From Longimicrobiales bacterium (lineage in GTDB: Bacteria; Gemmatimonadota; Gemmatimonadetes; Longimicrobiales; Gaopeijiaceae): a stretch of 64,000 nt of DNA. Below the pieces are notes generated by a model. It searched no databases. It worked only from the letters and a program-made list of their open reading frames with translations, and was not told the DNA's origin. Positions 96 through 45,598 of the stretch are shown piece by piece (positions within the stretch are counted from its first letter, which is position 1; every line of letters starts with the position of its first letter). The stretch is taken from assembly GCA_965238005.1 (NCBI GenBank), contig OZ250165.1, positions 2,080,001 to 2,144,000 on the forward strand, in the 5' to 3' direction. The position numbers and the translations under genes are program-made.

Positions 96-724
96 TCCAG
101 ATTCTTTCTCACCAAGATGGTGAACTCGTAAAGTCCATAGTCGTGCAGCAGGGCGACCTGCCCCGAATACGTTCGCTTGCAGTGATCGAAGAGCCAGCTC
201 GGGTCGGCGTAGAATAAATCATCACGCATATGCTCCGGATCGGAGTAGCTCGTGAGCGCGTTGAAGGCGAAGCCTTTCAGCGAGAGCATATGGAGCTCGT
301 CCAGCGTCTCGAGAACGTACCCCTTCCACTCGGCCTCCGAGGTCTCGAGTTTGACATTGAGCACACCGCTGGCGACGACGTAGTCGGAGGGCCTCAGCTC
401 GGCCTCGTTCGTGGTGAACTCCCATGGATCCCCCGGGTTGAGCCGCCTCGCCCGTAGGATCATCTCTTCCGACACGTCGTATCCCATGTACCGAAACGGC
501 TGACCTCGCTGGGTGAGCACGTCGATCATCGCCCCGTACCCGCACCCGTAGTCCAGAAGAGAGTACTCCGTCGTCCCGAACGGCACGATCCCAAGGAGCT
601 GATCGAAGCGCGTCTCTTGCGACTCGGTCGAGTTCCAGTCGACGCCGTGGGCCGTCTCACCGTGTTGGCGGACCTTCTCACTGTAGTAGTCGGCAACTCG
701 CTCGCGAATCGAGGCGTCTACCAT
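92..724 (-). CDS. Class I SAM-dependent methyltransferase
   Basis: LLDYGCGYG motif I. Start chosen at MVDASIRE. Confidence 0.85.
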   Translation of the reverse strand: MVDASIRERVADYYSEKVRQHGETAHGVDWNSTESQETRFDQLLGIVPFGTTEYSLLDYGCGYGAMIDVLTQRGQPFRYMGYDVSEEMILRARRLNPGDPWEFTTNEAELRPSDYVVASGVLNVKLETSEAEWKGYVLETLDELHMLSLKGFAFNALTSYSDPEHMRDDLFYADPSWLFDHCKRTYSGQVALLHDYGLYEFTILVRKNLE

Positions 725-782
725 CGGCAGTGTCCCGTTGCCGAAGTAAGCGAGCCACCAAGAGGGTCGGGGCGCCGTGGGT

Positions 783-1733
783 TCAAGATCCGTCCCTCTC
801 CCCGCCAACCTCCTCCAGGCGATCGTAGGACTGCCGGATAATCGTGTATGGCCGATCCTTGGTCTCGACGAAAACCTTCGAGAGGTACATGCCGATGACG
901 CCGAGAAACGAGAAGGTGAGCCCACCGAGGAACCAGATGGATATGATCAGCGACGGCCAGCCGAGCCCGAAGTCGATGAAGAACAACTTGGCCAAAAGAG
1001 TGATTAGTGCCGCGGACACGGAGACCGCCGTCACGATCATACCGAGGTAGAAGACGAGAACCAGGGGTACGTTGCTGAACGCGGTGATCGACGTCACGGC
1101 GAAGTTGAGTTTCATCCGAAGGCTGTACGTGGACGAACCCTTGTGGCCCTTGTCCACGGGCACCGAGACCTGTTCGTAGCCCGTGATGGCCCACAGCCCA
1201 GCCAGGAACACCTCGTGGTCCCGATGCTCGATCAGGCTCTCCACGTACCGGCGCGTCATCAAGCGCGCGGACACCTGGTTCGCCGGCACCGGATAGCTGG
1301 TGAGCAGCCGGAAGATGGCGTAGTGTACGGCCCCGCTGACACGCTCGAACCACCTCCCCTTCCGTTTTCGCTGGACGCCGTAGACCACGTCGGCTCCCGT
1401 CTCCTGCATCCGCTCGTAAAACGGGCCGAGCCAGCTCGGATCTTCCTCAAGATCGCTGTCCAGTGAGAAGACAAGGTCACCCCGGGCGTGCGCGAGTCCG
1501 GTGAGGATCGCCTTGTGCTGACCGAAGTTGCGAGAGAGGTCGATGACCCGGACGCGCCGGTCCCTCTCGTAGAGCTCCAGCGCGATGTCCAGCGATTCGT
1601 CAGGAGAGCCGTCGTTGACCAGGACGATCTCGAAATCATCCGTGATTCCCTGGGCCGCCGCGCAGCAACGATCGTAGAAGTCCGGCAGGTACGGTGCGCT
1701 TCGGTAGAGCGTGGTGACGATGGAGAGCTTCAT
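783..1733 (-). CDS. GT2 glycosyltransferase, GtrB/ArnC-like polyprenyl-phosphate sugar synthase
   Basis: MKLSIVTTLY, VNDGSPD, SRNFGQ and DSDLE motifs, two C-terminal TM helices and a RPYTII tail. Confidence 0.9.
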   Translation of the reverse strand: MKLSIVTTLYRSAPYLPDFYDRCCAAAQGITDDFEIVLVNDGSPDESLDIALELYERDRRVRVIDLSRNFGQHKAILTGLAHARGDLVFSLDSDLEEDPSWLGPFYERMQETGADVVYGVQRKRKGRWFERVSGAVHYAIFRLLTSYPVPANQVSARLMTRRYVESLIEHRDHEVFLAGLWAITGYEQVSVPVDKGHKGSSTYSLRMKLNFAVTSITAFSNVPLVLVFYLGMIVTAVSVSAALITLLAKLFFIDFGLGWPSLIISIWFLGGLTFSFLGVIGMYLSKVFVETKDRPYTIIRQSYDRLEEVGGERDGS

Positions 1734-2485
1734 CGACTTGACCCACTCAGCATGTGATCGGGCGCCCCCGTTCCGGTGTGGAAGATGAGATCGAGGATCG
1801 TGACCCGGTGAGCGAACGGCGGATAGAGCTGATCGTACTCGGGATACCCGTCGTATTCCATCCAGATGACGTCGACTCCGGCCTCCTCGAAGAGCGATTC
1901 GTCCAGATATGCCCGTGCCGAAGGCCCAGAAAGGTACTCGGTCGCGCCGGCGCCCCCGCAGAGGTCTATCAGGCGCTCCGACTTTTGGCCCGTCACCCCG
2001 TAGTCCATGGACCACGTGATCTTGGTGTCGATTCCGAGGATGCCGCAAATGGCGGTCAGGAATCGCTGGTTGATCTGGCTCAGATGCTCGTCCGATGCGT
2101 CTTGATAGACTTCCTCGATCCGCGCGGCGAACTGGGAAAAGCACGGGGCCTTCGAGTAGGCATGATAAAGGCTCTTCCAGTGCTTCTCACGCCAAGAGGG
2201 GTCGCTGATGCGCGTATCCTTGACGGCCTGACCGTACTTGCCTTTCGTCACGACCGGAACGGTGAGCCACTTGAGCCCGTCCGCGGTCTTGATGCGGTTC
2301 CGATTTCGCCAATCCCGGCGGGTGAACTGCGCATCGTCGAAGAGCACGAACTCGTCGACGCTCCCGATGAGGTCGAAGTATCCCTTCCACGGGATGTAGT
2401 TGGACTGTACGACGGCGATGCGCTTGGGCGCCGGGCGCACCTTGGCGCCGGCCGCCGGGGTCTCGGCCCCCGAGGCGTCAGCCAC
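1730..2485 (-). CDS. WbqC-family protein (putative glycyltransferase)
   Basis: VVQSNYIPWKGYFD, DDAQFTRRDWRNRNRIK and YLSGPSA motifs. Confidence 0.88.
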   Translation of the reverse strand: MADASGAETPAAGAKVRPAPKRIAVVQSNYIPWKGYFDLIGSVDEFVLFDDAQFTRRDWRNRNRIKTADGLKWLTVPVVTKGKYGQAVKDTRISDPSWREKHWKSLYHAYSKAPCFSQFAARIEEVYQDASDEHLSQINQRFLTAICGILGIDTKITWSMDYGVTGQKSERLIDLCGGAGATEYLSGPSARAYLDESLFEEAGVDVIWMEYDGYPEYDQLYPPFAHRVTILDLIFHTGTGAPDHMLSGSSR

Positions 2486-3662
2486 AGCGGTACTCCCTGA
2501 CCGTGCGGATGACGACCTCTTGATTCGCCTCATCCAGTCCCGTAAAGAAAGGAAGCCGCACGAGACGAATGCTCACATCCTCGGCCACGGGGCAGTCGCC
2601 CGGCCGGGAACCCAGACTCTCTCCCATGGGCGACAGGTTAAGCGGCACATAGTGGAAGACCGAACTGACGCCGTTTTCCTCGAGAAAGGCGATGAACCGG
2701 CTCCGATGCTCGGCAGTCGGGAGCAGCAAATAGTACATGTGGAAGGTCTGCTCGACATGTTTGGGCACGACCGGCAGTTGTACGCCCTCTGCGTCCGCCC
2801 AGTCCGCCAGTCCTCCGTGGTACCGTTGCCAGAGCTCCTTCCGCTTCTGTTGAATGAGAGCTCTCGCCTCGAGCTGGCAGAGGAGGAAGGCGGACAGGAG
2901 ATCGGAGGGCTGATAGCTCGAGCCCAGGTCGACCCAGGTGTACTTGTCCACCAGACCCTCCAGGAACTGCGCGCGATTCGTACCCTTGTTCCGGATGACC
3001 TTCGCCCTGTCCAGCAGGTCGGCATCGTTCAGGAGGAGTGCCCCGCCCTTCCCACACGTCAGGTTTTTTGTCTCGTGGAAGCTCTGCGTGGCCATGACCC
3101 CGAACGTCCCCAGCGGCTTTCCTTTGTAGCTCCCCAAAAGACCGTGGGCGTTGTCTTCGATGATGGAGAGTCCGGCCTCGTCGGCGACGGTCTGGATCGC
3201 ATCCATCTCGCAACCCACGCCCGCGTAGTGGACCACTACGACCGCCCGCGTTCGTGGGGTGATCTTGGATTCAAGCAAGCGCTCGTCGAGGTTGAGGGTA
3301 TCGGACCGGACGTCGACGAAGACGGGCCTGGCTCCTCTGAGCGCGAACGCGTTGGCCGTGCTGACGAAGGTGAAGGAGGGCATGACGACCTCGTCCCCTT
3401 CTTCGAGGTCCAGCAGTAGGGCGGCCATCTCCAGAGCGTGGGTGCACGAGGACGTGAGCAGAGCCGCCTCGGCTCCGGTCATGTCTACGAGGAGCTCCTC
3501 GCACTGGTCTGTGAAAGGCCCACCCTCCGAGATCACAAGGCCCTCTACGGCCTCTCGCATCCGCCCGAACTCGGTCCCCACCAGGTAGGGCCGATTGAAG
3601 GGGATCCTCCCGTCGACGCGGATGTCCTCGGGTCCGGAGACCTCAGGTCCGTTCGTGCGCAT
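2478..3662 (-). CDS. rffA: dTDP-4-amino-4,6-dideoxygalactose transaminase (DegT/DnrJ family)
   Basis: IPFNRP, SCTHALEMAALLL, PSFTFVSTANAF and SFHETKN (PLP Lys); KGTNR..F..G.VDKYTW is characteristic of WecE/RffA. Confidence 0.9.
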   Translation of the reverse strand: MRTNGPEVSGPEDIRVDGRIPFNRPYLVGTEFGRMREAVEGLVISEGGPFTDQCEELLVDMTGAEAALLTSSCTHALEMAALLLDLEEGDEVVMPSFTFVSTANAFALRGARPVFVDVRSDTLNLDERLLESKITPRTRAVVVVHYAGVGCEMDAIQTVADEAGLSIIEDNAHGLLGSYKGKPLGTFGVMATQSFHETKNLTCGKGGALLLNDADLLDRAKVIRNKGTNRAQFLEGLVDKYTWVDLGSSYQPSDLLSAFLLCQLEARALIQQKRKELWQRYHGGLADWADAEGVQLPVVPKHVEQTFHMYYLLLPTAEHRSRFIAFLEENGVSSVFHYVPLNLSPMGESLGSRPGDCPVAEDVSIRLVRLPFFTGLDEANQEVVIRTVREYRCG

Positions 3663-34425: not shown

Positions 34426-35652
34426 CTACGGCCCGACCACGACTCCCTCTTTGATCACGGACCGGCACGGGTTCGTGCCTATCCAGTAGGCCAGCTCTCG
34501 CGGGTGGCTCACGTCCCAAAGAGCCAGATCTGCACGCTTTCCCGGCTCCAAGGTGCCGATGTCTGCCCCCAGGTCCAAAGCCAATGCAGCATTCCTCGTC
34601 ACACCCGCCAGGGCCTCCTCCGGAGTCAGCCGGTAGAGAGTGCAGCCCATGTTGAGGATGGTGAGGAGTGAGAGGATGGGAGACGAGCCGGGGTTGGCGT
34701 CGGTCGCCAGGGCCATGGGCACGCCGTGCTCCCTGAGCGAGCTCACCGGAGGCGTGCGGGTCTCACTCAGATAGTAGAACGCCCCGGGAAGCAACACGGC
34801 CACGGTCTCCGCTCCGGCCATCGCCCGGACGCCATCCTCGGACGCGTACTCGAGGTGATCGGCCGAGAGGGCCGAGAAGCGGGCTGCCAGGGCCGCGCCC
34901 CCCGTATCCGACAGCTGGTCAGCGTGGAGCCTGATCGGAAGCCCCAGGTCGCTGGCCGCCTGGAAGAACGAGGCGCACTCGTCGGGTGTGAATGCGATCC
35001 CCTCGCAGAAGGCATCGACCATGTCCACCAGACCGTCCTCCACGGCCGACGGCAGCAGCTCCCCCACCACGAGAGCCACGAAGTCGTCGCGCCGTCCGTC
35101 GAACTCGGGAGGGAGGGCGTGGAGAGCGAGAAGCGTCGTTCTGACGGTGAGCGGGAGTCTCTCACCGACGCTTCGTGCCGTCTGCAGCATGCGTAGCTCG
35201 GTGGCGACATCCATACCGTAGCCGGACTTGATCTCGAGGGTGGTGACACCCTGGCGAAGCAGCTCGCCGGCCCTCGCCACGGCTCCGGCTTCCAGCTCCT
35301 CGGACGTGGCCTCCCGGGTCGCCCGCACGGTGGAGCGGATGCCCCCCCCGGCGCTGGCGATCTCGACATAGGTGGCGCCCTGCAGGCGAGCCTCGAACTC
35401 GTCGGCCCTGTCCCCTCCGAAAACGAGATGGGTATGGCAGTCGATGAGCCCGGGGGTCAGCCAGGCGCCCCCGGCATCGTGTACCTCGGTTTCGGGGCCC
35501 ATACCACTCGCGGGTAGCTGCGACCTCGGCCCCACCCACTCGATCTTCCCGCTGGTCGCGGCCACGGCACCGTCAGGCACCTCTCCGTAGGCGGCGCCGC
35601 CGCTCCGCATGGTGGCGACCTGGCTATTCAGCCAAACGCTGTCGAATGCCAA
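34426..35652 (-). CDS. hutI: Imidazolonepropionase
   Basis: PGLIDCHTHLVF, EIKSGYG, DAFCE, HADQL and ATDANPGSSP motifs. Confidence 0.95.
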   Translation of the reverse strand: MAFDSVWLNSQVATMRSGGAAYGEVPDGAVAATSGKIEWVGPRSQLPASGMGPETEVHDAGGAWLTPGLIDCHTHLVFGGDRADEFEARLQGATYVEIASAGGGIRSTVRATREATSEELEAGAVARAGELLRQGVTTLEIKSGYGMDVATELRMLQTARSVGERLPLTVRTTLLALHALPPEFDGRRDDFVALVVGELLPSAVEDGLVDMVDAFCEGIAFTPDECASFFQAASDLGLPIRLHADQLSDTGGAALAARFSALSADHLEYASEDGVRAMAGAETVAVLLPGAFYYLSETRTPPVSSLREHGVPMALATDANPGSSPILSLLTILNMGCTLYRLTPEEALAGVTRNAALALDLGADIGTLEPGKRADLALWDVSHPRELAYWIGTNPCRSVIKEGVVVGP

Positions 35653-35660
35653 AGAGAGTC

Positions 35661-37508
35661 CTATCCGTTGGTGATTCCTGGCCGCCCTAGCGCCGCCTCC
35701 ACGCACTTCTCCACCACCCGCGCAGCTTCGTCGGCTTCCTGCAGAATGCCATCCAGCTTGCCTCGAACGTCCTTGTCGAACGCTTCGTCCGAGATGTTCG
35801 GGAGGTTGATGCGCACGTTGTAGATCGCGGCCTTGAGGCCCGCATGGGCCATGAGCGCCCCCGATCCCACGTCGCTGATCATCTCGGGCGTGGCCATGGC
35901 CGCCATCTCCTCACAGAGCTTCATGGCCTCCAGGCATCCCTCGGCTGTCCCGAGCGGAACGAGCGTGGCCGTTTTGTAGCCCTCCTGGATGGCGGCGGAA
36001 CGAAGAGTCCGCTCTTCTTCGGTGTCCGGTGGCATGCGCATGCCCGTGAGGACGGAGTCGAAGGCCTGTGTGTCCTCGTCCACCATTCTGACGAGGAGGT
36101 CCTTTACGGCTTGAGCCCTTTCCGCGATGGAGCACAGCTGCTCGTAGCGATCGTCGAACTCGCCCTTCCCCACCGACAGGTTCACCACCATCGAGACCAG
36201 CGCCCCACCGAGAGCGCCGGCCAGAGCGGCTACCGATCCCCCGCCCGGGGCGGGTGTCTCCCGCGAAACCTCGTCGATGAAGTCGAACGTGGGACGCAGG
36301 ACCAAGGGCCCCTCCACGGTGGGCGCCGCCAAGACCTTCTCCCGAACGTCGAAGGGCGCGACGTCTCTCAACCCCATGGACTGGATGGCCGTCTCCAGAA
36401 GATCAGCGACCGGAACGCCCGTGGACTTCATGGCCCGTCTGCGATAGAAGACTCCGGCCTGCCGCAAGGCTTCGAAGGGGATGAGGCCGATCAGCTCGGA
36501 GCCAGTGATGACCACACCCCTCTTGCGCGCCTCTTCCCGAGCCGCCTCCAGCACCTCATGAGGAGGGCTCACCTTGAAGTTCGTGAAGTTGATGCTGATC
36601 TGAGCCCGGTTGTACTCTTCGATCACCCAGCCGATGGCCTTTACGTCCGTAAACAGGCCGTCGTCGAAGACGGGGCCGGACGGGGCCTCGGGATCGATGT
36701 CCAGGGCCTGGTAGCGCGCCCGAAGATCCCCCCCGTGAACGTCCCGGTAGTGGGTCTCCAGCTCCCCGAAGCTCCCGCCCACGAAGTCGCAGGGACCGCA
36801 GGGGTAGGTACCATCCTCGGGGAAGCGCACGACCTCGCCCTTGTAGTAGAACGGATCAGTGTTGCCCACCCGCTTCCACCGCCCCCGTTCCCGGAGCGCG
36901 TAGGCAATGTCGTTGGCGTAGCGCCGGTCGGTGGAGCTCAGGTTGATGTTGTACGCGATCAGGAATTCCCGGGCGCCCACACAGGTGGCTCCCGCCCCCG
37001 GATTGAGGACCTGTGGCCCGAAGTCCGGATGCCAGTCCGGATCCTTGAGCTTCTCGGCCATACTCTCGTACTCGCCGGACCGCACCTGTGCGAGGTTTTC
37101 CCGCTCCGGACGGGTAGCCGCCTGCTCGTAGAGGAAGACCGGAATGTCAAGCTCCTCGCCGATGCGCTTTCCGACACGTTGAGCCATGGCGACGCACTCT
37201 TCCATGGTCACACCGGACACCGGCACGAAGGGCACGACGTCGGTGGCCCCCATCCTGGGATGCTCTCCCTGGTGCTCCCGCATGTCGATGAGCTGGGCAG
37301 CCCTGGCCACGCACTGGAAGGCGGCGTCTTCGACTGCATCGGGGGCACCGACGAAGGTGACCACGGTTCTGTTGGTATTGGCCCCCGGATCCACGTCGAG
37401 AAGGCGGACGCCGGCGACGGCCTCGATGGCGTTGGTGATCTCCTTCAGGACGGCGGGGTTCCTTCCTTCGGAGAAGTTGGGGACACACTCGACGATCGGT
37501 TGAGACAT
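35661..37508 (-). CDS. ftcD: Glutamate formimidoyltransferase / formimino-THF cyclodeaminase (bifunctional)
   Basis: VECVPNFSEGR, GEHPRMGATDVVPF and PAPGGGSVAAL motifs. Confidence 0.95.
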   Translation of the reverse strand: MSQPIVECVPNFSEGRNPAVLKEITNAIEAVAGVRLLDVDPGANTNRTVVTFVGAPDAVEDAAFQCVARAAQLIDMREHQGEHPRMGATDVVPFVPVSGVTMEECVAMAQRVGKRIGEELDIPVFLYEQAATRPERENLAQVRSGEYESMAEKLKDPDWHPDFGPQVLNPGAGATCVGAREFLIAYNINLSSTDRRYANDIAYALRERGRWKRVGNTDPFYYKGEVVRFPEDGTYPCGPCDFVGGSFGELETHYRDVHGGDLRARYQALDIDPEAPSGPVFDDGLFTDVKAIGWVIEEYNRAQISINFTNFKVSPPHEVLEAAREEARKRGVVITGSELIGLIPFEALRQAGVFYRRRAMKSTGVPVADLLETAIQSMGLRDVAPFDVREKVLAAPTVEGPLVLRPTFDFIDEVSRETPAPGGGSVAALAGALGGALVSMVVNLSVGKGEFDDRYEQLCSIAERAQAVKDLLVRMVDEDTQAFDSVLTGMRMPPDTEEERTLRSAAIQEGYKTATLVPLGTAEGCLEAMKLCEEMAAMATPEMISDVGSGALMAHAGLKAAIYNVRINLPNISDEAFDKDVRGKLDGILQEADEAARVVEKCVEAALGRPGITNG

Positions 37509-37514
37509 GAGTTG

Positions 37515-39182
37515 TCAGCTCTCCCGCATTGGAATAAGAAGCCCCTCTCGCTCGGCGGTCTCCACCGCCTTCTGGTAGCCCGCATCGGCGTGTCGTACGA
37601 CGCCGATACCGGGATCGTTGGTGAGTACCCGACGGATCCGCTCAGACATCTCGGCCGAGCCGTCGGCCACCAGGACCTGGCCGGCATGGAGTGAGTTGCC
37701 GATGCCGACGCCGCCGCCGTGATGGAACGACACCCAGCTCGCTCCCGACGCCGTGTTCAGGAGGGCGTTCAGAATGGGCCAGTCGGCAACCGCGTCGCTT
37801 CCGTCGAGCATGGCCTCGGTCTCGCGGTAGGGCGAAGCCACCGACCCGGTATCCAGATGGTCGCGCCCGATGACGATAGGAGCCGAGACCTCGTCGCTGG
37901 CCACGAGCTCGTTCATGGCCACTCCGAAGCGGGCCCGCTCTCCCTGTCCCAACCAGCAGATCCTGGCCGGCAGCCCTTGGAAGTGGACTTTCTCCCGCGC
38001 CATGCCGATCCAGCGCACCAGATGCTCGTCGTCGGGGAACATCTCCAGCACCAGATCGTCGGTCCGGTGGATGTCGGTCGGGTCACCCGAGAGCGCCACC
38101 CATCGGAAGGGCCCCTTCCCCTCGCAGAACAGAGGACGCACGTAGGCGGGCACGAACCCGGGGAACGCGAAGGCGTCTTCGAAGCCGGCGTCCAGGGCCT
38201 GGGTCCGGAGGTTGTTTCCATAGTCGGTCGTATGGGCGCCTGCCCGCATGAGGTTCACCATGGCCTCACAGTGGATGCGCATGGACTCCATGGATCGCCG
38301 GATGTACTCGTCGGGATCGGAAGCCCGCAGGGACGCGGCGGCTTCCAGGGACAAGCCTGCCGGAACGTAGCCGTGCAGCGGGTCGTGAGCCGACGTCTGG
38401 TCGGTGAGCAGGTCGGGGACGACCCCACGGCGGGAGATCTCCGGGATCACTTCCGCACAGTTGCCCACCAGGCCCACGCTGAGCGCCTCACCCCGGTCGG
38501 CGGCCCCCCGAGTCCACTCGAGCGCCTCGTCGAGATCGTCGGTCATTCGGTCGCAGTACCCGGTGTCCAGCCGCCGCTGGATCCGTGCCGGGTCCACCTC
38601 CACGACCAGAATGGCGCCATTATTCATGGTAGCAGCCAGCGGCTGAGCGCCACCCATGCCCCCCATCCCGCCGGTCAGGACCCAGCGGCCCTTGAGGCTG
38701 GAGCCGAAGTGCTTCCGAGCCATGGCCCCGAAGGTCTCGTACGTGCCCTGCAAGATGCCCTGGGTCCCGATGTAGATCCACGAACCGGCCGTCATCTGGC
38801 CATACATCATGAGCCCCTTCCGCTCCAGCTCGTTGAAGTGGTCCCAGTCGGCCCAACGGCCCACGAGGTTGGAGTTGGCGATGAGGACGCGGGGGGCATC
38901 GGTGTGGGTGGTGAAGACTCCGACCGGCTTGCCGGACTGGACGAGGAGCGTCTCGTCGTCCTCAAGTGCGCGTAGGGAAGCCACGATGCGGTCGAACGCC
39001 TCCCAGCTTCGGGCGGCCTTGCCGGTTCCACCGTGGACGACCAGGTCGTTGGGTCGCTCGGCGACCTCCGGATCCAGGTTGTTCATCAGCATCCGGAGGG
39101 CGGCCTCCTGGGTCCACCCCTTGCAGGAAAGCTCGTTGCCGCGGGGCGCGCGGATCGTTCGCGGCCCGACTGTGGTGCTCAA
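37515..39182 (-). CDS. hutU: Urocanate hydratase
   Basis: [25 protein letters not shown] and GRDHLD motifs; TTG start with gaaggaga RBS. Confidence 0.97.
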
Positions 39183-39195
39183 AGCTCTATCTCCT

Positions 39196-40701
39196 TCACT
39201 CGACAAGGCTCGCCAGTGTACCGTCACGTATCAGGTCTCTCACAGCCTCGAAGTCGCCTGACAGAGAGCGGTCGCCGTCGAGGCGCGCGACATGCTCACG
39301 GATCAAAGCGTGTGCCCTTTCTACTCCGTCCCCCGCCTTCAAGGGCCGGTGGTATTCGATCGCCTCGGCCGCCGCCACCAGCTCGATGGCCAGGACGTAC
39401 TCCAGACAGTCCACGATCCGTCGTGCTTTGCGGGCCGCGGCCAATCCCATCGAAACGTGGTCCTCCTGGCTAGCGCTGGTGGGCACCGAGTCCACACTGG
39501 CGGGATGAGAGAGCACTCGCATCTCGGCCAGCAGATCCACGGCCGTCACCTGGGCGATCATGAACCCGGACTGGAGGCCCGGCTCCCGTGCCAGGAAAGC
39601 CGGTAGACCCGAGAGATCCGGGTTGAGAAGCCGCTCGGTTCGTCGCTCACTGATGGCCGCCAGGTCCGTCACAGCCATGCACAGGAGATCGAGAGCCTGG
39701 GAGACGATCTGCGCATGGAAGTTACCGGCGCTCACCACGGCCCGGGCCTCGGGGAAAACCAACGGGTTGTCGGTGGCGCTGTTGGCCTCGGTGGTCAGAA
39801 TCTCCCGCACGTAGCCGAGGGAGCTCCGGGCGGCCCCATGGACCTGCGGCATGCAGCGCAGGCAGTAGGCGTCCTGAACCCGGGGATCACCGTGCCGATG
39901 CGACTCGCGGATCTCCGAGTCGGCAAGCAGCGCCCGGAGGCGGCGGGCCGACTCGATCTGGCCCGGATGGGGCCGGGCCTCCTGCACCTCGGCTCGAAAC
40001 GCCTCGGGAGTCCCCTTCAGCCCCTCGAGGCTCATGCAGCCGGCGACTTCAGCCACGTTCAGGGCCCGCTGCGCCGTGAGCAGGGCCAGAATCCCGAGGC
40101 CCGTGGTGGCCTGGGTCCCGTTGATGAGGGCCAGGCCCTCCTTTTCGCACAGCTCGACGGCGTCGAGGCCGAGCTCGGCCAGCACCTCTCCGGTGTCCCG
40201 AATCCGGTCCCGGTACTCGACCTTGCCCTCTCCGATCAGGGCCAGGGCGATGTGGGCCAGGGGTGCCAGATCCCCGCTGGCGCCCACCGATCCGAACCGT
40301 GGCACCACGGGGTGGACGGCCCGGTTCAGAAGCTCCAACAGCAGGTCGATGACCTCCTCGCGGCAACCCGAGTTGCCGCGGGCAAGGGCGTTGGCCCTGA
40401 GGATGATGATTGCACGCACCTCTTCGGTGGCCATCGTCTCGCCCACCCCGGACGAGTGGCTACGCACCAGATTCCGCTGGAGCTGCCCCTGCTGATCGGG
40501 TGAGATGACGACCTCGGCCAGACGCCCGAATCCAGTCGTAACCCCGTAGATGCGCTCTCCGCTCTCGAGGAGCTCCTCGACGAAGTCCCGGGCTTGGCGC
40601 ACCCGGGATCGGGCCGCCTCCGCCAGGGATACCGGCACCCGCCCGACAGCTGCTTCCTCCACGGTCTCCAATGGGAGGCCGTGGCCCGTGAGCTCGATCA
40701 T
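39196..40701 (-). CDS. hutH: Histidine ammonia-lyase
   Basis: [20 protein letters not shown] (MIO), VQDAYCLRC and QEDHVSMG motifs. Confidence 0.97.
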
Positions 40702-40774
40702 CGCACTCCTCGCACACTCGCGGGCCTCCGGACCATCCCTCCCCGGCGCAGCGGGGCGGGTCCCCACCTCCGGA

Positions 40775-41374
40775 TCATTCGCTGGCCCTTCGCTGCTCTT
40801 CGAATTCGGCCCTGGTGAGGGTGTAGTCTTCTTCCCGCCAATTGGCCTCCAGTTCGACGCCCAGTCCGTCGGCCAGGCGGTTGACGTAGTTGTAGTAGCA
40901 GACCACCTGACAGATATCGAGAATGGCGGCTTCGTCGAATCCCACCTCGCGGAGGCGTTCGACATCCCCTTCGCCCACCTTCCACGGCGTCAGGGTCAAC
41001 TTCATCGCGTAGTCGAGCATCGCCCGGTCCTCGACTTCCAGATCGGCCTCCCGATGGTCGCGAGCGAGAGCCCTCGACAGCTCGGGGTCTTTCGTGAGCC
41101 TACGGAGTCCCGCTCCGTGATGGTTGATTCAGTAGAAGCACTCGTTCACCGCCGAGACCGTCACGGCGATCATCTCCCGCTGCGCCCGGCTCAGCGGCGA
41201 CGGTCCCCGCATGAGGTTGTCATAGAGCCGTACGTGGTGCTCCATGGAGGGCGGATTCAGGGAGTGGATCCGGATGATATTGTCTACGTTCATCTCCGGG
41301 CCACCGTATCGCCGATACAGCTCGGCGAGGGAGCCCTGCGCCTCTTCGTACGGCACGTAGGGGATGTGCGCCAA
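40775..41374 (-). CDS. AhpD/CMD-like peroxidase-related enzyme, probable selenoprotein (UGA at 41129-41131 read as Sec)
   Basis: ORFs 41129-41440 and 40775-41020 are in the same frame, separated only by the TGA in N-E-C-F-Y-U-I-N-H-H. A SECIS-like hairpin follows. Confidence 0.85.
41102..41118 (-). promoter_or_regulatory. Putative bacterial SECIS hairpin
   Basis: mRNA reads UGA-AUCAACCAUC-ACGGAG-CGGGA-CUCCGU: a 6-bp stem with a G-containing loop starting 16 nt after the UGA. Confidence 0.7.
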
Positions 41375-41390
41375 TGCTCGGTGCCTTGCT

Positions 41391-41749
41391 CTAGAGGCCT
41401 GTTGAAGAAGTGGGGCGAGCCGCGTTAGGAGCGCCGACAAGCGCTAGGGCGCTTGTTACCGGCCAGATCCTAGGCGGTGCCCCGAAGGCATAGCAATAGC
41501 TACGTCGAGGGGCGCCAACAACGGAGATGGCCCCGTGCCGCCCTAACCCGAAGGGCGAAGGGGGGTTGCGGGCCCATAGCGCGTCTCTCTTCCTCGCCGT
41601 AGCCATGCTACGCCTCGTCATCGTTCGTTCTTCGCCTTCGGCTCAGGTGTCGCGGGTCCGCGACGTTCTCTGGTCACCGCAAGACCGGGGTACCCGCGCC
41701 GAAGGCGTGGGTCGCGCGGCCGCACCCCACTTCTTCAACAGGCCTCGAG
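41391..41749. mobile_element. ~355 bp MITE-like element
   Basis: Perfect 22-bp IRs gaggcctgttgaagaagtgggg (41394-41415) / ccccacttcttcaacaggcctc (41725-41746); ctag/cgag flanks; multiple internal hairpins. Confidence 0.85.
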
Positions 41750-41763
41750 CGTCTGCTCGTGAT

Positions 41764-41802
41764 CTGGTGTTCCGTTACCAAAGTCTCGGCAACGGAACAC
41801 TC
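41764..41802. repeat. Minimal (ends-only) copy of the 16163 MITE family
   Basis: gtgttccgttaccaaagtctcggcaacggaacac hairpin, matching the 16166 end. Confidence 0.65.
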
Positions 41803-41961
41803 GAAGTGCGGAAACATGCCCCGGTCATCGCGGAGGGGCAATGAAACCCCGGCGCATGACCTACACGCAGCGAACGTCCTTGCTTTTCGGCGGATCCGGG
41901 GGGCAGATTTACGCGGCACTGACCAGGATCGCCCCGCCCGTCCCCCTGCTCCCACGAGATC

Positions 41962-43053
41962 TTGAACGTATACGACGTCTCGCCCATCGAACTGGATGAG
42001 GATCTGCGACAGCTGAGGCTCCGCCTGGGCTCCGCCGCACTGTTCATCCTCGCCGTCATGCTCGTGGGGATCGTCGGATATCGCGTCATCGACCCGGGCG
42101 TCGGCTGGGTGGATGCCTTCTACATGACGGCCATCACCCTCACCACGGTGGGGTTCGGTGAGATCGTGGACATGACGGCCCGTCCCGGCGGGCGGATCTT
42201 CACGGTCTTGCTCATTCTCGTGGGGATGGGCGGCGTGCTCTATCTTGTCACAACCGCGACGGCCCTCATTGTCGAGGGACAGATCGGGCACGTCTTCAGG
42301 AGACGGAAGTTGGAGAAGACCATCGGCAACATGTCGGGGCACTTGATCGTGTGCGGCGCAGGAGGTACGGCTGCCTACACAACCAGAGAGCTCCTGTCGG
42401 TCCGGAGACAGGTCGTGCTGATCTGCGAGAAGCGCGACCAGGTCGACTACCTGCGAGGCGAGATCGGAGACACCCCGCTCATCGTCGGTGATCCCGCTTC
42501 AGACGAAGTGCTGCTCGCGGCCGGAGTGGAGAGGGCCGCGGGGATCGTGGCGTGCACCGACAACGACAAGGAAAACGTCGTGATCACCCTGAGCGCCCGC
42601 CAGCTGAACCCGACGATCCGCATCGTCTCGCGCATCACCGACATCCACTCCGAGGACAAGATCCGACGGGTTGGAGCGGACGCGGTGGTATCGCCCACCT
42701 ACATCGGAGGCCTGCGCCTGGCTTCGGAGCTCATTCGGCCCACGGTGGTGAACTTGCTGGACGTCATGCTCCGTGATCGTGACGCCAACCTGCGCATCGA
42801 CGAGATCACGATTCCGGAGTCGTCTCCGGCTGCGGGCAAGCGGGTTCGTGAGCTGGGGCTCGACAAGATGTCCAATGCACTGCTCATGGCCGTGCGGAGC
42901 CCCTCGGGCCAATGGCACTACAACCCGGGCGAGGACCAGGAGGTGACCGCCGGGACCGTGCTCATCTTCCTCGGGTCGCCAGAGGACATGAGGGGTCTGT
43001 GCGATCAGCTTGGCGGTGTGGTCGTCTCCAAGCCCGCGGCGGCAGGAGCGTAG
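41962..43053 (+). CDS. 2-TM potassium channel with RCK (TrkA-N/TrkA-C) domains
   Basis: TLTTVGFGE selectivity filter; HLIVCGAG; GADAVVSP. Confidence 0.92.
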   Translation: MNVYDVSPIELDEDLRQLRLRLGSAALFILAVMLVGIVGYRVIDPGVGWVDAFYMTAITLTTVGFGEIVDMTARPGGRIFTVLLILVGMGGVLYLVTTATALIVEGQIGHVFRRRKLEKTIGNMSGHLIVCGAGGTAAYTTRELLSVRRQVVLICEKRDQVDYLRGEIGDTPLIVGDPASDEVLLAAGVERAAGIVACTDNDKENVVITLSARQLNPTIRIVSRITDIHSEDKIRRVGADAVVSPTYIGGLRLASELIRPTVVNLLDVMLRDRDANLRIDEITIPESSPAAGKRVRELGLDKMSNALLMAVRSPSGQWHYNPGEDQEVTAGTVLIFLGSPEDMRGLCDQLGGVVVSKPAAAGA

Positions 43054-43054
43054 C

Positions 43055-45598
43055 GTGGAGGAATCCGGCCATCACGTAATCGAAATCGTCGGCGCCACCG
43101 TCGGTCTCCTGCTCGTCGCGGCCGGCGTGATGGCGATCTCGAAGCGCCTCAAAGTCCCGTTCACGGTGGCGCTGGTGGTCACGGGGATCGCTTTGGCCCA
43201 GCTCGCCCACTTCGGTGGGGCGGTTCTCGAGCCCATCGCCAACCTGCGGATCGCCCCGGAGATCGCGTTTTTCGTCTTCTTGCCCACGCTGATCTTCGAA
43301 TCGGCCTTCAACCTCGAGGCGCGGGCGCTCCGTGAGAACCTCACGGCGGTCCTGACCCTAGCCGTTCCCGGCCTCCTCATCTCCACCGGTCTCATCGCGG
43401 CCATCGTGGTGGCGGCCACGCCATTCGGCTGGCTCGAGGCGCTACTCCTGGGGTCGATCCTGAGCGCCACCGATCCCGTGTCGGTGATCTCGCTCTTCCG
43501 CCAGCTCGGGGCACCCAAGAGGCTCACGATCCTCGTGGAGGGCGAAAGCCTCTTCAACGACGCCACGGCCATCGTGCTATCGAGAATTCTGACGGGCATC
43601 CTGCTCGCCGGCGTGATCACCAAGGAGGCCGTGGTCTTCGGGGGCGTCCAGTTCCTGTTCGTGTTCTTCGGTGGCCTGATGGTCGGGTGGGCAGCCGCTC
43701 TCCTGGTGGGGATGATCCTGGGCCGCGTGGAAGCAGACACCTTCATCGAGGTGACGCTCACCACCGTCTTGGCCTACGTGTCCTTCCTCCTGGCGGAGGA
43801 GGTGCTCCACCTGAGCGGGGTGATGGCGACCGTCATGGCCGGCATGCTCATCGGAGGATGGGGGAAGGCCAAGATCTCGCCGTCCGTGGTGGGCTACCTG
43901 GAGCGCTTCTGGGAATACATGGCCATGGTGGCCAACGCCCTCATCTTCCTCATGGTCGGCCTCGCCGTCGACCTGGGGGCTCTGGCGAATAGCGCCCCGC
44001 TCCTGATCGTCGTCGTCCTGGCCATGCTCGTCTCCAGGTCGATCGTGATCTTCGGGCTGGTCCCGGGTATCGGCCGCCTCCCGGGCTCGGACCCCATCGA
44101 TCGCGGTTATCAAACCGTCATGTTCTGGGGCGGCCTGCGTGGCGCCGTGGCCCTGGCCATCGCGCTGAGCCTTCCGGATCTGGGGAGAGAGGTGCCGGGC
44201 TTCGGAGACCTGAATGAGGTCATCGTGGCGCTGGTTATGGGAGCCGTGCTCTTCACGCTCCTCGCCCAGGGGCTCACCGTCGAAGCCCTCGTCCGCAGGT
44301 TCGGGCTGCACGTCCCGCCGCTGTCGGACCGCGTCGCCAGGATCGAGGGCCTGCTCTCCGCGAAGCAGCGGACCCTGGAGCAGATCCCGGACCTCAAGAC
44401 GGGAGGGCTGTTCCCTCCCCGCATCACAGAGGGGGTCCGCTCCCGCTGTGAGGCGGGCATCGAGGAGATGAAGTCGGACCTGGACGAGCTCCGCCGGGAG
44501 GAACTCGACGTCGAGCAGGAGCGCAAGCTCCTCTACCTGCGCTCCTTCGGCGAAGAGAATACGATCTACTACTCGATGTTCTCCCGCGGACATCTCACGG
44601 AGCGGACCTACCGCAACCTCGCCCACTCCATCGAGCTGCAGACCGAGGGGATCCGCCACCAGGGACGCCTTCCCGAGTACACGCTCCACCCACCCACGGG
44701 TGAGACGATCGAGAACGTGGTCTACCGCTTCATGGACCACATCCCGGGCCTGGGGGCTTGGGCAGAGAGCATGAGGGCGGAGCGCACCGCCCGCGACTAC
44801 GAGATCGCATGGGCCCGGTCACGCGGCAGCCTCCAGGTGCTGGAAGAACTGGAGGCCCTCGGTGAGGCCGAGTCGGCCCGGCCCGAGATCGTGGATGACA
44901 TTCGGGCCTCGTACGAGTACTGGCGAGAAAACGCCCGTGGTCGACTCGATCAAAACGCCGAGCAGTTTCCGGAGTTCGTGCACTCCACCCAGGAGCGCCT
45001 GGCGGAGCGCATGGTGCTCCACGCCGAGCGAGAGGCCATCGAGGCGAAGGCTCACGCCGGGATCATCCCCGAGGGTGTGGCCGAGGTCATGCTGGAGGAG
45101 ATGGCCGTAGAGCTGCGCGAACTCCGGGCGAGCAAGGCCGGGAAGCTGGCCGTGGATCCGGAGGAGCTCCTGAAGAAGGTCCCCTTCTTCAGGGACACGC
45201 CGGAAGAGGAGTTCGCCATCGTGGCGTCGAAGCTGAGGCGCAGGACCGCGCCGGCGGGCGAAGTCATCGTCAAGCAGGGGGCGTCGGGTTCGTCCCTCTA
45301 TCTGGTGGCTCGGGGTGTCATCCGGGTATCCCGGCAGGACGGTGGCGTCACCAGGGACATGGCGACGCTGATGGCGGGCGACTTCTTTGGGGAGATGGCC
45401 CTTCTGCACGGCACTCCACGAACCGCAACATGCCGCGCCGTGACCCCGTGTGCTCTTTACGAGCTGCGACGGGATCACATGGACGCGGTTAGGGAGGCGT
45501 GTCCTCGCATCCAGCAGACGTTGGAGGAGGCCGACGAGCGTCGGCGCGCGGAGCTGAGGACGCCAAGCGACCCGGGGGAGTCGGACTCCGAGCACTGA
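43055..45598 (+). CDS. CPA1 Na+(K+)/H+ antiporter with C-terminal cyclic-nucleotide-binding domain
   Basis: FLPTLIFESA, SATDPVSV, EGESLFNDA and GGLRGAV motifs; CNBD motif GDFFGEMALL..PRTAT. Confidence 0.92.
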   Translation: MEESGHHVIEIVGATVGLLLVAAGVMAISKRLKVPFTVALVVTGIALAQLAHFGGAVLEPIANLRIAPEIAFFVFLPTLIFESAFNLEARALRENLTAVLTLAVPGLLISTGLIAAIVVAATPFGWLEALLLGSILSATDPVSVISLFRQLGAPKRLTILVEGESLFNDATAIVLSRILTGILLAGVITKEAVVFGGVQFLFVFFGGLMVGWAAALLVGMILGRVEADTFIEVTLTTVLAYVSFLLAEEVLHLSGVMATVMAGMLIGGWGKAKISPSVVGYLERFWEYMAMVANALIFLMVGLAVDLGALANSAPLLIVVVLAMLVSRSIVIFGLVPGIGRLPGSDPIDRGYQTVMFWGGLRGAVALAIALSLPDLGREVPGFGDLNEVIVALVMGAVLFTLLAQGLTVEALVRRFGLHVPPLSDRVARIEGLLSAKQRTLEQIPDLKTGGLFPPRITEGVRSRCEAGIEEMKSDLDELRREELDVEQERKLLYLRSFGEENTIYYSMFSRGHLTERTYRNLAHSIELQTEGIRHQGRLPEYTLHPPTGETIENVVYRFMDHIPGLGAWAESMRAERTARDYEIAWARSRGSLQVLEELEALGEAESARPEIVDDIRASYEYWRENARGRLDQNAEQFPEFVHSTQERLAERMVLHAEREAIEAKAHAGIIPEGVAEVMLEEMAVELRELRASKAGKLAVDPEELLKKVPFFRDTPEEEFAIVASKLRRRTAPAGEVIVKQGASGSSLYLVARGVIRVSRQDGGVTRDMATLMAGDFFGEMALLHGTPRTATCRAVTPCALYELRRDHMDAVREACPRIQQTLEEADERRRAELRTPSDPGESDSEH

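Follow-up and report, generated by a model that had tools for sequence, protein, structure and literature searches.

The 64,000-nucleotide stretch analysed here (positions 2,080,001 to 2,144,000 of contig OZ250165.1 from a Longimicrobiales bacterium; hereafter the window) carries on its minus strand a gene for an AhpD-like protein that contains a single in-frame TGA codon and stands directly before a cluster of histidine utilisation (hut) genes. The host genome comprises 4.84 Mb in one contig. An earlier note on this DNA, made from the letters alone, had proposed that two short in-frame open reading frames (ORFs) join over one TGA into a 199-residue selenoprotein; the two ORFs lie on the minus strand, and all sequence details quoted for them are correct. 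The features of the locus are listed in Table 1.

Table 1. Annotated features of the selenoprotein locus and the adjoining hut cluster (positions within the window).
Feature	Position	Strand	Details
AhpD-like selenoprotein gene (TIGR01926, 'peroxidase-related enzyme')	40775..41374	minus	199 codons, TTG start, TGA stop
UGA codon 82, predicted to be read as selenocysteine	41129..41131	minus	second position of the C79-x-x-U82 redox motif; followed by His85/His86
SECIS-like hairpin	41102..41118	minus	6-bp stem ACGGAG/CUCCGU, loop CGGGA, 10 nt after the UGA
hutH, histidine ammonia-lyase	39196..40701	minus	TIGR01225, 668 bits (cut-off 539)
hutU, urocanate hydratase	37515..39227 (ORF; family match from residue 23)	minus	TIGR01228, 959 bits (cut-off 375)
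ftcD-type glutamate formimidoyltransferase fused to a cyclodeaminase-like domain	35661..37508	minus	TIGR02024, 365 bits (cut-off 221); NF045657 at residues 409-605
hutI, imidazolonepropionase	34426..35706 (ORF; family match from residue 45)	minus	TIGR01224, 453 bits (cut-off 298)
MITE-like repeat	41390..41749		about 360 bp, terminal inverted repeats of about 26 nt; repeat copies in the same genome

Translation from the TTG start (41374-41372) to the TGA stop (40777-40775) yields 199 residues, with one internal in-frame TGA at 41131-41129, i.e., codon 82. The read-through product is ...REMIAVTVSAVNECFY-U-INHHGAGL...AMLDYAMKLT...YYNYVNRLADGLG, in which the motif context is REMIAVTVSAVNEC79-F-Y-U82-INHHGAGL (U, selenocysteine or Sec), and its N-terminus, MAHIPYVPYEE, agrees with that of the homologues. 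A plain ORF list cuts the gene in two, at 41129..41440 (103 amino acids) and 40775..41020 (81 amino acids); the part of the first ORF that lies upstream of the TTG, up to 41440, is noncoding and forms the end of a repeat element. Standard gene calling was expected to split such genes, and does so both in this list and in public database entries. Among 26 database homologues inspected at the Sec column, 10 show Cys, six show W and one shows R; seven more are fragments that begin just past the Sec codon, one is a fragment that stops just short of it and one begins further downstream. The W printed in P0002, P0010, P0011, P0012, P0081 and P0103 probably reflects a TGA that the gene caller translated with a different code, and the R in P0020, which comes from a 1-Mb contig, could be a real CGA variant. 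The locus thereby provides another example of routine gene calling splitting selenoprotein genes and leaving entries that are truncated at the codon or carry W there.

The pairing of TGA and Cys at this column, which the earlier note had suggested looking for, is pronounced. We compared 189 homologous loci, comprising 80 loci from species-representative genomes, 29 loci from genomes of the same family and 80 metagenome loci, and found TGA in 172 of them and a Cys codon in the other 17. All Cys forms fall within the 80 best species-representative loci (63 TGA, 14 TGC and 3 TGT), and TGA occupies the column in every one of the same-family (29/29) and metagenome (80/80) loci. Across the phylum, a homologue occurs in 153 of 401 genomes, with TGA in all but eight of the matches listed. 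C79 is nearly invariant among the homologues. Judging by their record titles, the Sec forms come from Gemmatimonadota, Chloroflexota, Acidobacteriota, Planctomycetota, Bacillus-like isolates and others. The host genome also encodes the decoding machinery for which a search had been proposed: selA (555.9 bits), selB (327.6 bits, or 354.9 bits with its C-terminal piece, over the cut-off), selD (370.9 bits; G000:C1:578521-579441, plus strand, outside the window) and a tRNA-SeC(tca) were all detected. The selD gene itself carries one in-frame TGA, in the motif GAG-U-ASK, so that the selenophosphate synthetase would be a selenoprotein as well.

Downstream of the UGA lies a hairpin resembling a selenocysteine insertion sequence (SECIS), with the 5' arm of its stem at 41118-41113, the loop at 41112-41108 and the 3' arm at 41107-41102. 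The 10-nt spacer places the beginning of the loop 16 nt after the UGA, and both the sequence and this spacing had been given correctly beforehand. The hairpin is located inside the coding sequence, where it encodes H-G-A-G-L-R. As worded in the relevant passage of PMC1088965, bacterial SECIS elements feature a stem-loop just 3' of the UGA with a guanosine in a small apical loop; the window hairpin agrees with that wording, given its 6-bp stem, its CGGGA loop and its conserved register. The loop guanosine G22 is conserved at 90% or more. All six pairs are kept in 44 of 63 Sec forms versus one of 17 Cys forms. In a 64-row alignment, 87.8% of the cells are paired, compared to 29-52.4% when the 3' partner is slid, and double-sided changes occur at three pairs (7 cells), a count reached by none of 500 shuffles.

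The clearest evidence for selection at the RNA level comes from synonymous codon choice, which was compared between the helix site and the remainder of the same genes in 136 distinct Sec genes. For the helix-closing Arg codon, the third base of which pairs with A14, CGT is used in 77 of 101 cases at the site and accounts for 227 of 1625 Arg CGN codons elsewhere. For the Leu codon, whose third base pairs with G17, CTC or CTT is used in 116 of 132 cases at the site versus 989 of 2027 elsewhere, and for the Gly codon, whose third base pairs with U26, GGA or GGG is used in 109 of 111 cases versus 588 of 1476. The direction and the size of this bias are plain; its nominal p-value is overstated because the compared sequences are kin. 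Judged from these comparisons, the hairpin is under selection at the RNA level.

A number of observations, to which this kinship belongs, weigh on the other side. The folding energy of the hairpin is unremarkable for this GC-rich sequence, with a z-score of 0.10 and 101 of 200 shuffles folding at least as well; the support lies in conservation rather than in thermodynamics. Covariation is modest, as the helix mostly consists of conserved sequence within the conserved peptide HGAGLR. An Rfam scan of positions 40600-42100 matched no SECIS model (the sole match in that region, to gabT with an E-value of 0.32 and below the gathering score, was taken as chance), and according to the run listing no sequencing run on record as RNA contains the stretch. 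The earlier note had stated that a genome without Sec machinery, together with homologues that all carry Cys and lack both TGA and hairpin, would speak against its proposal; what we found is the machinery, a TGA column and a hairpin. Taken together with the Sec/Cys pairing and the conservation of the hairpin at the RNA level, this supports the proposed insertion of Sec, and we predict it at UGA-82 with a confidence that approaches certainty.

In the protein, Pfam recognizes a CMD domain (PF02627) and, weakly, sestrin. The NCBIfam family TIGR01926 is matched with 152.4 bits against a curated cut-off of 81.8, in line with the initial assignment as an AhpD-like CxxU enzyme. Two other families were considered and rejected: NF041238 (AhpD_rel_CFYUT; 68.3 bits, cut-off 175) and AhpD proper (TIGR00777; 18.3 bits, cut-off 191.95). 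The solved relatives 2pfx, 3c1l, 2oyo, 6k40 and 2prr are found with E-values from 3e-32 (2pfx) to 2e-23. The CFYC and CYYC motifs of 2pfx and 3c1l align onto CFYU (C79/U82), and the TGA falls on their second Cys, as had been claimed. The AlphaFold model, built from a 53-row alignment, is all-helical with a predicted local distance difference test (pLDDT) score of 96.2; a helix spanning residues 80-94 starts right after C79 and holds U82 in its first turn. Foldseek returns 3c1l, 2prr, 2pfx and 6k40 as the nearest solved folds (template modelling (TM) scores of 0.78-0.83, E-values of about 1e-11), followed by more distant matches to Streptococcus pneumoniae AhpD, PA0269, sestrin-2 and the debrominase Bmp8.

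Cys79 precedes Sec82 by three residues, and the nearly invariant His86 follows Sec82 by four. The weak TIGR00777 match runs from residues 61-98 to model positions 112-149 and puts C79, U82 and H86 on Cys130, Cys133 and His137 of Mycobacterium tuberculosis AhpD. With the roles that we take these three residues to have in AhpD, Sec82 would be the attacking nucleophile of the CxxU centre and Cys79 the resolving residue. In the mechanism that we propose, UGA-82 would be recoded at the ribosome by SelB carrying Sec-tRNA(Sec), which would bind the 6-bp hairpin beginning 10 nt downstream; Sec would be inserted and translation would continue to the TGA at 40777-40775. Sec82 might then reduce a peroxide or an oxidised thiol, after which Cys79 would resolve it to a selenenylsulfide and a cellular reductant would recycle the centre. 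Most likely, the selenoprotein would be produced alongside the enzymes of histidine degradation and act as an optional redox accessory. Overall, the region very likely represents a single, intact gene encoding an AhpD-like thiol/selenol oxidoreductase of 199 residues, a reading in which we include recoding by SelB and the placement with the hut genes.

The family is not new. In the passages that concern it, PMC1088965 describes the 'AhpD-like protein' (COG2128, CxxU) as a new selenoprotein family from Sargasso Sea data with 27 sequences, PMC2398784 counts 299 Sec and 902 Cys sequences of AhpD-like 1 in the Global Ocean Sampling (GOS) data, where it is among the most abundant families, and a table in a 2026 review (PMC13188914) has the entry 'AhpD-like protein, TIGR01926, CxxU'. 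According to these passages, AhpD-like CxxU proteins are among the commonest known bacterial selenoproteins. Since the TIGR01926 score is above the cut-off and the review lists TIGR01926 as a CxxU selenoprotein, the window gene is, by its sequence, a member of this family, known since 2005. It shares with the family the CxxU motif, the pairing of Sec and Cys at one alignment column and a hairpin whose small apical loop contains guanosines, and differs in being the first gene of a histidine utilisation cluster, a context that is absent from the passages on the family in the three papers. The solved 'peroxidase-related' proteins 2pfx, 3c1l (Mlr4105), 2prr, 2oyo and 6k40 have the same all-helical fold at 29-34% identity, but carry Cys in place of Sec and lack the C-terminal extension seen in relatives of the window protein (see below). 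One of them, 6k40, is an alkyl hydroperoxide reductase of Deinococcus radiodurans; judging from the entry titles, most come from structural genomics and have no defined physiological role. The likeness to AhpD of the M. tuberculosis type is a local match over the active-site region only, with a score far below the cut-off. NF041238 has a CFYU-type motif in common with the window protein, which matches model positions 151-343 of 357, i.e., the C-terminal half, yet that family is about 357 residues long compared to 199 here.

Outside the window, the genome has one more AhpD-like paralogue of the Sec type, likewise with an in-frame TGA (G000:C1:2419967-2420518, minus strand). It is 44% identical to the window protein and has the motif CHYU; its hairpin, GACCUC-CGGGAA-GAGGUC, lies further from the UGA than that of the window gene.

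The gene had been placed at the head of a histidine utilisation operon, and hutH, hutU, the ftcD-type fusion and hutI indeed lie downstream of it on the same strand. The hutH ATG is at 40701, and the gap to the stop codon of the selenoprotein gene amounts to 73 nt; the order and strand in the earlier note thus stand, and its gap of 74 is one too many. A terminator scan gave no terminator-like site between the genes on the minus strand, the only such site being on the plus strand, and a promoter scan gave no sites. We consider it probable that the selenoprotein gene is co-transcribed with the hut genes. The ftcD-type fusion between hutU and hutI marks a folate-dependent route, with no hutG or hutF seen in the cluster. 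Other genes of the window include a K+ channel gene (TrkA-type) at 41962-43053 and, at 43010-45598 on the plus strand, a gene whose 862-residue product resembles Na+/H+ antiporters and has a cyclic-nucleotide-binding-like region at its C-terminus, with weak matches to CRP and related models at residues 710-847.

Conservation of the hut linkage across relatives had been suggested as a check. Among the 80 best species-representative loci, hutH-hutU follows directly in six only, which are the closest ones (L016-L021, Gemmatimonadota/Longimicrobiales by title). Of the 29 same-family orthologues (58-69% identity), hutH comes next in 20, and hutU comes directly next in one (L104); in the other eight, the nearest 1.5 kb contain no hut gene, and one of these eight (L116) sits at a contig end. 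A direct hutH or hutU neighbour is therefore found in 21 of 28 assessable same-family orthologues. Seven close relatives among the 80 metagenome loci are hutH-linked too. Outside this group, L166 stands before a true hutH (TIGR01225, 649 bits), which shares only 46% identity with the window hutH, and L142 and L172 stand before a true hutI (TIGR01224, 455 and 433 bits). L166 and L142 are each immediately preceded by a gene that encodes the substrate-binding protein of an ABC transporter.

These three loci are phylogenetically apart from the hut-linked Gemmatimonadota loci. In a FastTree phylogeny of 190 rows, the hut-linked genes of Gemmatimonadota fall in two neighbouring groups (44 rows, 35 of them linked), and L166, L142 and L172 fall in the other half of the tree, within a well-supported clade of 25 rows. 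With IQ-TREE on 81 rows, a constraint that gathers all 22 linked rows in one clade is rejected (log-likelihood difference 265.6, p of the approximately unbiased (AU) test 7e-50), a value obtained in an LG+G4 quick search and for a group chosen after the first tree had been seen. The 15-row clade to which L166, L142 and L172 belong also contains 12 unlinked rows, including one titled Anaerolineae, and has a support of 97 in the Shimodaira-Hasegawa-like approximate likelihood ratio test (SH-aLRT). Compared to the AhpD-like selenoprotein family at large, the Gemmatimonadota clade has an extra C-terminal extension of about 20 residues, which is present in 31 of 33 hutH-linked members of the clade. 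L166, L142 and L172 lack it, so that the extension marks the Gemmatimonadota clade and not the hut linkage.

The reverse count gives a different proportion. Taking one genome per genus in the same family and a hutH threshold of E <= 1e-100, hutH was found in 57 of 80 other genomes; 29 hutH loci were fetched, 27 of which have room upstream, and an AhpD-like gene precedes hutH in only nine of these 27. In the 18 loci without an AhpD-like gene, no recurring substitute redox gene was seen upstream, many of the longest frames there having no family match. In one hutH locus, L235 (G412:C2:66190-70686), hutH adjoins a divergent TrkA-N/TrkA-C gene like that of the window with no AhpD-like gene between them, which indicates that the selenoprotein gene was gained or lost within an otherwise similar neighbourhood. 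The hut link is hence real but partial: the check on relatives came out in favour of the linkage when counted from the orthologues and from the separate cases L166, L142 and L172, and against it when counted from hutH.

Literature searches returned no paper that links AhpD-like or CMD proteins, or selenoproteins, with histidine utilization, hutH or urocanate hydratase (the last judged by title), which accords with the statement in the earlier note that such a link was not known to be described. The hut context is a first clue to the role of this orphan family of AhpD-like selenoproteins, and the recurrent, tightly spaced position before hutH, hutU or hutI turns it into a concrete and cheaply testable hypothesis; we see it as a modest, testable lead and not as a discovery of kind. 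To a function tied to histidine catabolism we would give somewhat less than an even chance. That the protein is a dedicated accessory of this pathway, which would be the first physiological context for a family orphaned since 2005, is a doubtful though still serious proposition. Two forms of such an accessory can be envisaged. It may keep an oxidation-sensitive Hut enzyme or intermediate reduced, or it may, by analogy with Bmp8- or deiodinase-like chemistry, convert a modified imidazole reductively into a Hut substrate. Hut enzymes or imidazolone propionate may be sensitive to oxidation, a point for which the literature searches gave no support.

Several results pull away from a role specific to histidine breakdown and agree with a general-purpose antioxidant that has no special tie to it, in which case the hut adjacency within one family would be inherited gene order and the other cases coincidence; we hold this to have close to an even chance. 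The 18 genus-level hutH loci without the gene, the arrangement in L235 and the seven assessable orthologues that lack a hut gene within 1.5 kb all fit this explanation, as does the presence of a second Sec paralogue at another site of the genome. Downstream partners are heterogeneous across the family: of 117 downstream ORFs, 14 are aromatic lyases (HutH) and the other 103 include peptidases, amino-acid permeases, arginase-family and C-N hydrolases, enoyl-CoA hydratases, glyoxalase-like proteins, a chaperonin and others. On the other hand, a general antioxidant does not readily explain why 21 of 28 assessable orthologues retain the adjacency despite divergence to 58-69% identity, why the gaps to hutH are short and why L104 has hutU as its direct partner. 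Nor does it account well for the recurrence of the adjacency with hutI, or with a distant hutH (46% identity), in a separate and well-supported part of the tree. As hut genes make up roughly 0.1-0.15% of genes (a rough estimate without a formal test), two to three extra cases among about 100 other loci exceed expectation. If the hut link were mere inherited gene order, the finding would amount to an ordinary annotation fix. Conversely, hut adjacency in Cys-form orthologues from other phyla, if true, would considerably raise the odds of a functional link; a metagenome scan for the Cys-form orthologues P0003 and P0005-P0009 recovered none of their contigs, its 80 loci being Sec forms throughout, with 58% identity for the best match.

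It is improbable, in our view, that the protein reduces small molecules, namely oxidised, thiolated, selenylated or halogenated forms of histidine or imidazole, so that the Hut enzymes can act on them, in analogy to the AhpD-fold debrominase Bmp8. Such a role would suit the finding that separate lineages have the gene in front of hutH, hutU or hutI, as well as the substrate-binding-protein gene next to L166 and L142, and Bmp8 (6ohi, 6ohj) does appear among the AhpD-fold matches, with TM scores of 0.70-0.72 and 18% identity. That likeness, however, is at the level of the fold only, and such a substrate is indicated by none of the analyses. HutH and HutU are canonical, and both thiourocanate hydratase models remain below their cut-offs on the window HutU. 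The proteins of the FGE-sulfatase type (FGE, formylglycine-generating enzyme) encoded next to L077 and L042 were considered as EgtB and rejected, as they reach 96-100 bits against a cut-off of 360 and fall below the SenA and OvoA cut-offs as well. The link to thio- or seleno-histidine breakdown floated in the earlier note therefore finds no support.

Two further explanations concern the UGA codon itself and are effectively excluded. One is that the TGA is a simple nonsense mutation or a sequencing error in a broken gene, as the split ORFs and the split fragments in public databases might suggest; against this stand the 172 of 189 loci, drawn from many phyla, that share the TGA at this column, the conservation of both halves in frame, the hairpin, the Sec machinery and the contigs of four runs, which show no variant at 41129-41131 among the 40 differences listed (58 further ones exist). 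The other is that TGA is read as an ordinary amino acid (Trp or Gly), as in genetic code 4 or 25, for which the W printed in several database homologues could be cited; yet TGA is not reassigned, because it serves as the stop codon of the window gene and of relatives' hutH genes, and in addition single-TGA matches are confined to the redox column and tRNA-Sec, selA, selB and selD are present. Three hutH matches were flagged with one TGA, and in the two that were checked (L218 and L226) it is the stop codon of the gene, so that there is no Sec in HutH.

The MITE (miniature inverted-repeat transposable element)-like repeat that precedes the selenoprotein gene lies between the gene and a conserved upstream block (window positions of about 41800-41909). 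Inserted 16 nt upstream of the start codon, it may alter the expression of the whole cluster and may have cut off the gene, and the hut cluster, from a native promoter. Three more full copies with 95-99.7% identity occur in the same genome (C1:3906028-3906387, 2380080-2380441 and 1852625-1852981), along with many partial copies. The repeat is absent from the site in the close relative L131, and in L016 only its terminal stretch of about 45 nt is matched; in both relatives the conserved block lies about 20 nt from the gene. The repeat also explains a depth spike at 41375-41436 in the contigs of the four runs, where many different flanks are joined. Its terminal 45 nt or so (41391-41435) reach word depths of 530-3200 in the contigs of three metagenome runs, again with varied flanks. 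Solo copies of this terminal part are likewise found in the genome and in L016, and it seems to be a short motif of very high abundance in these communities.

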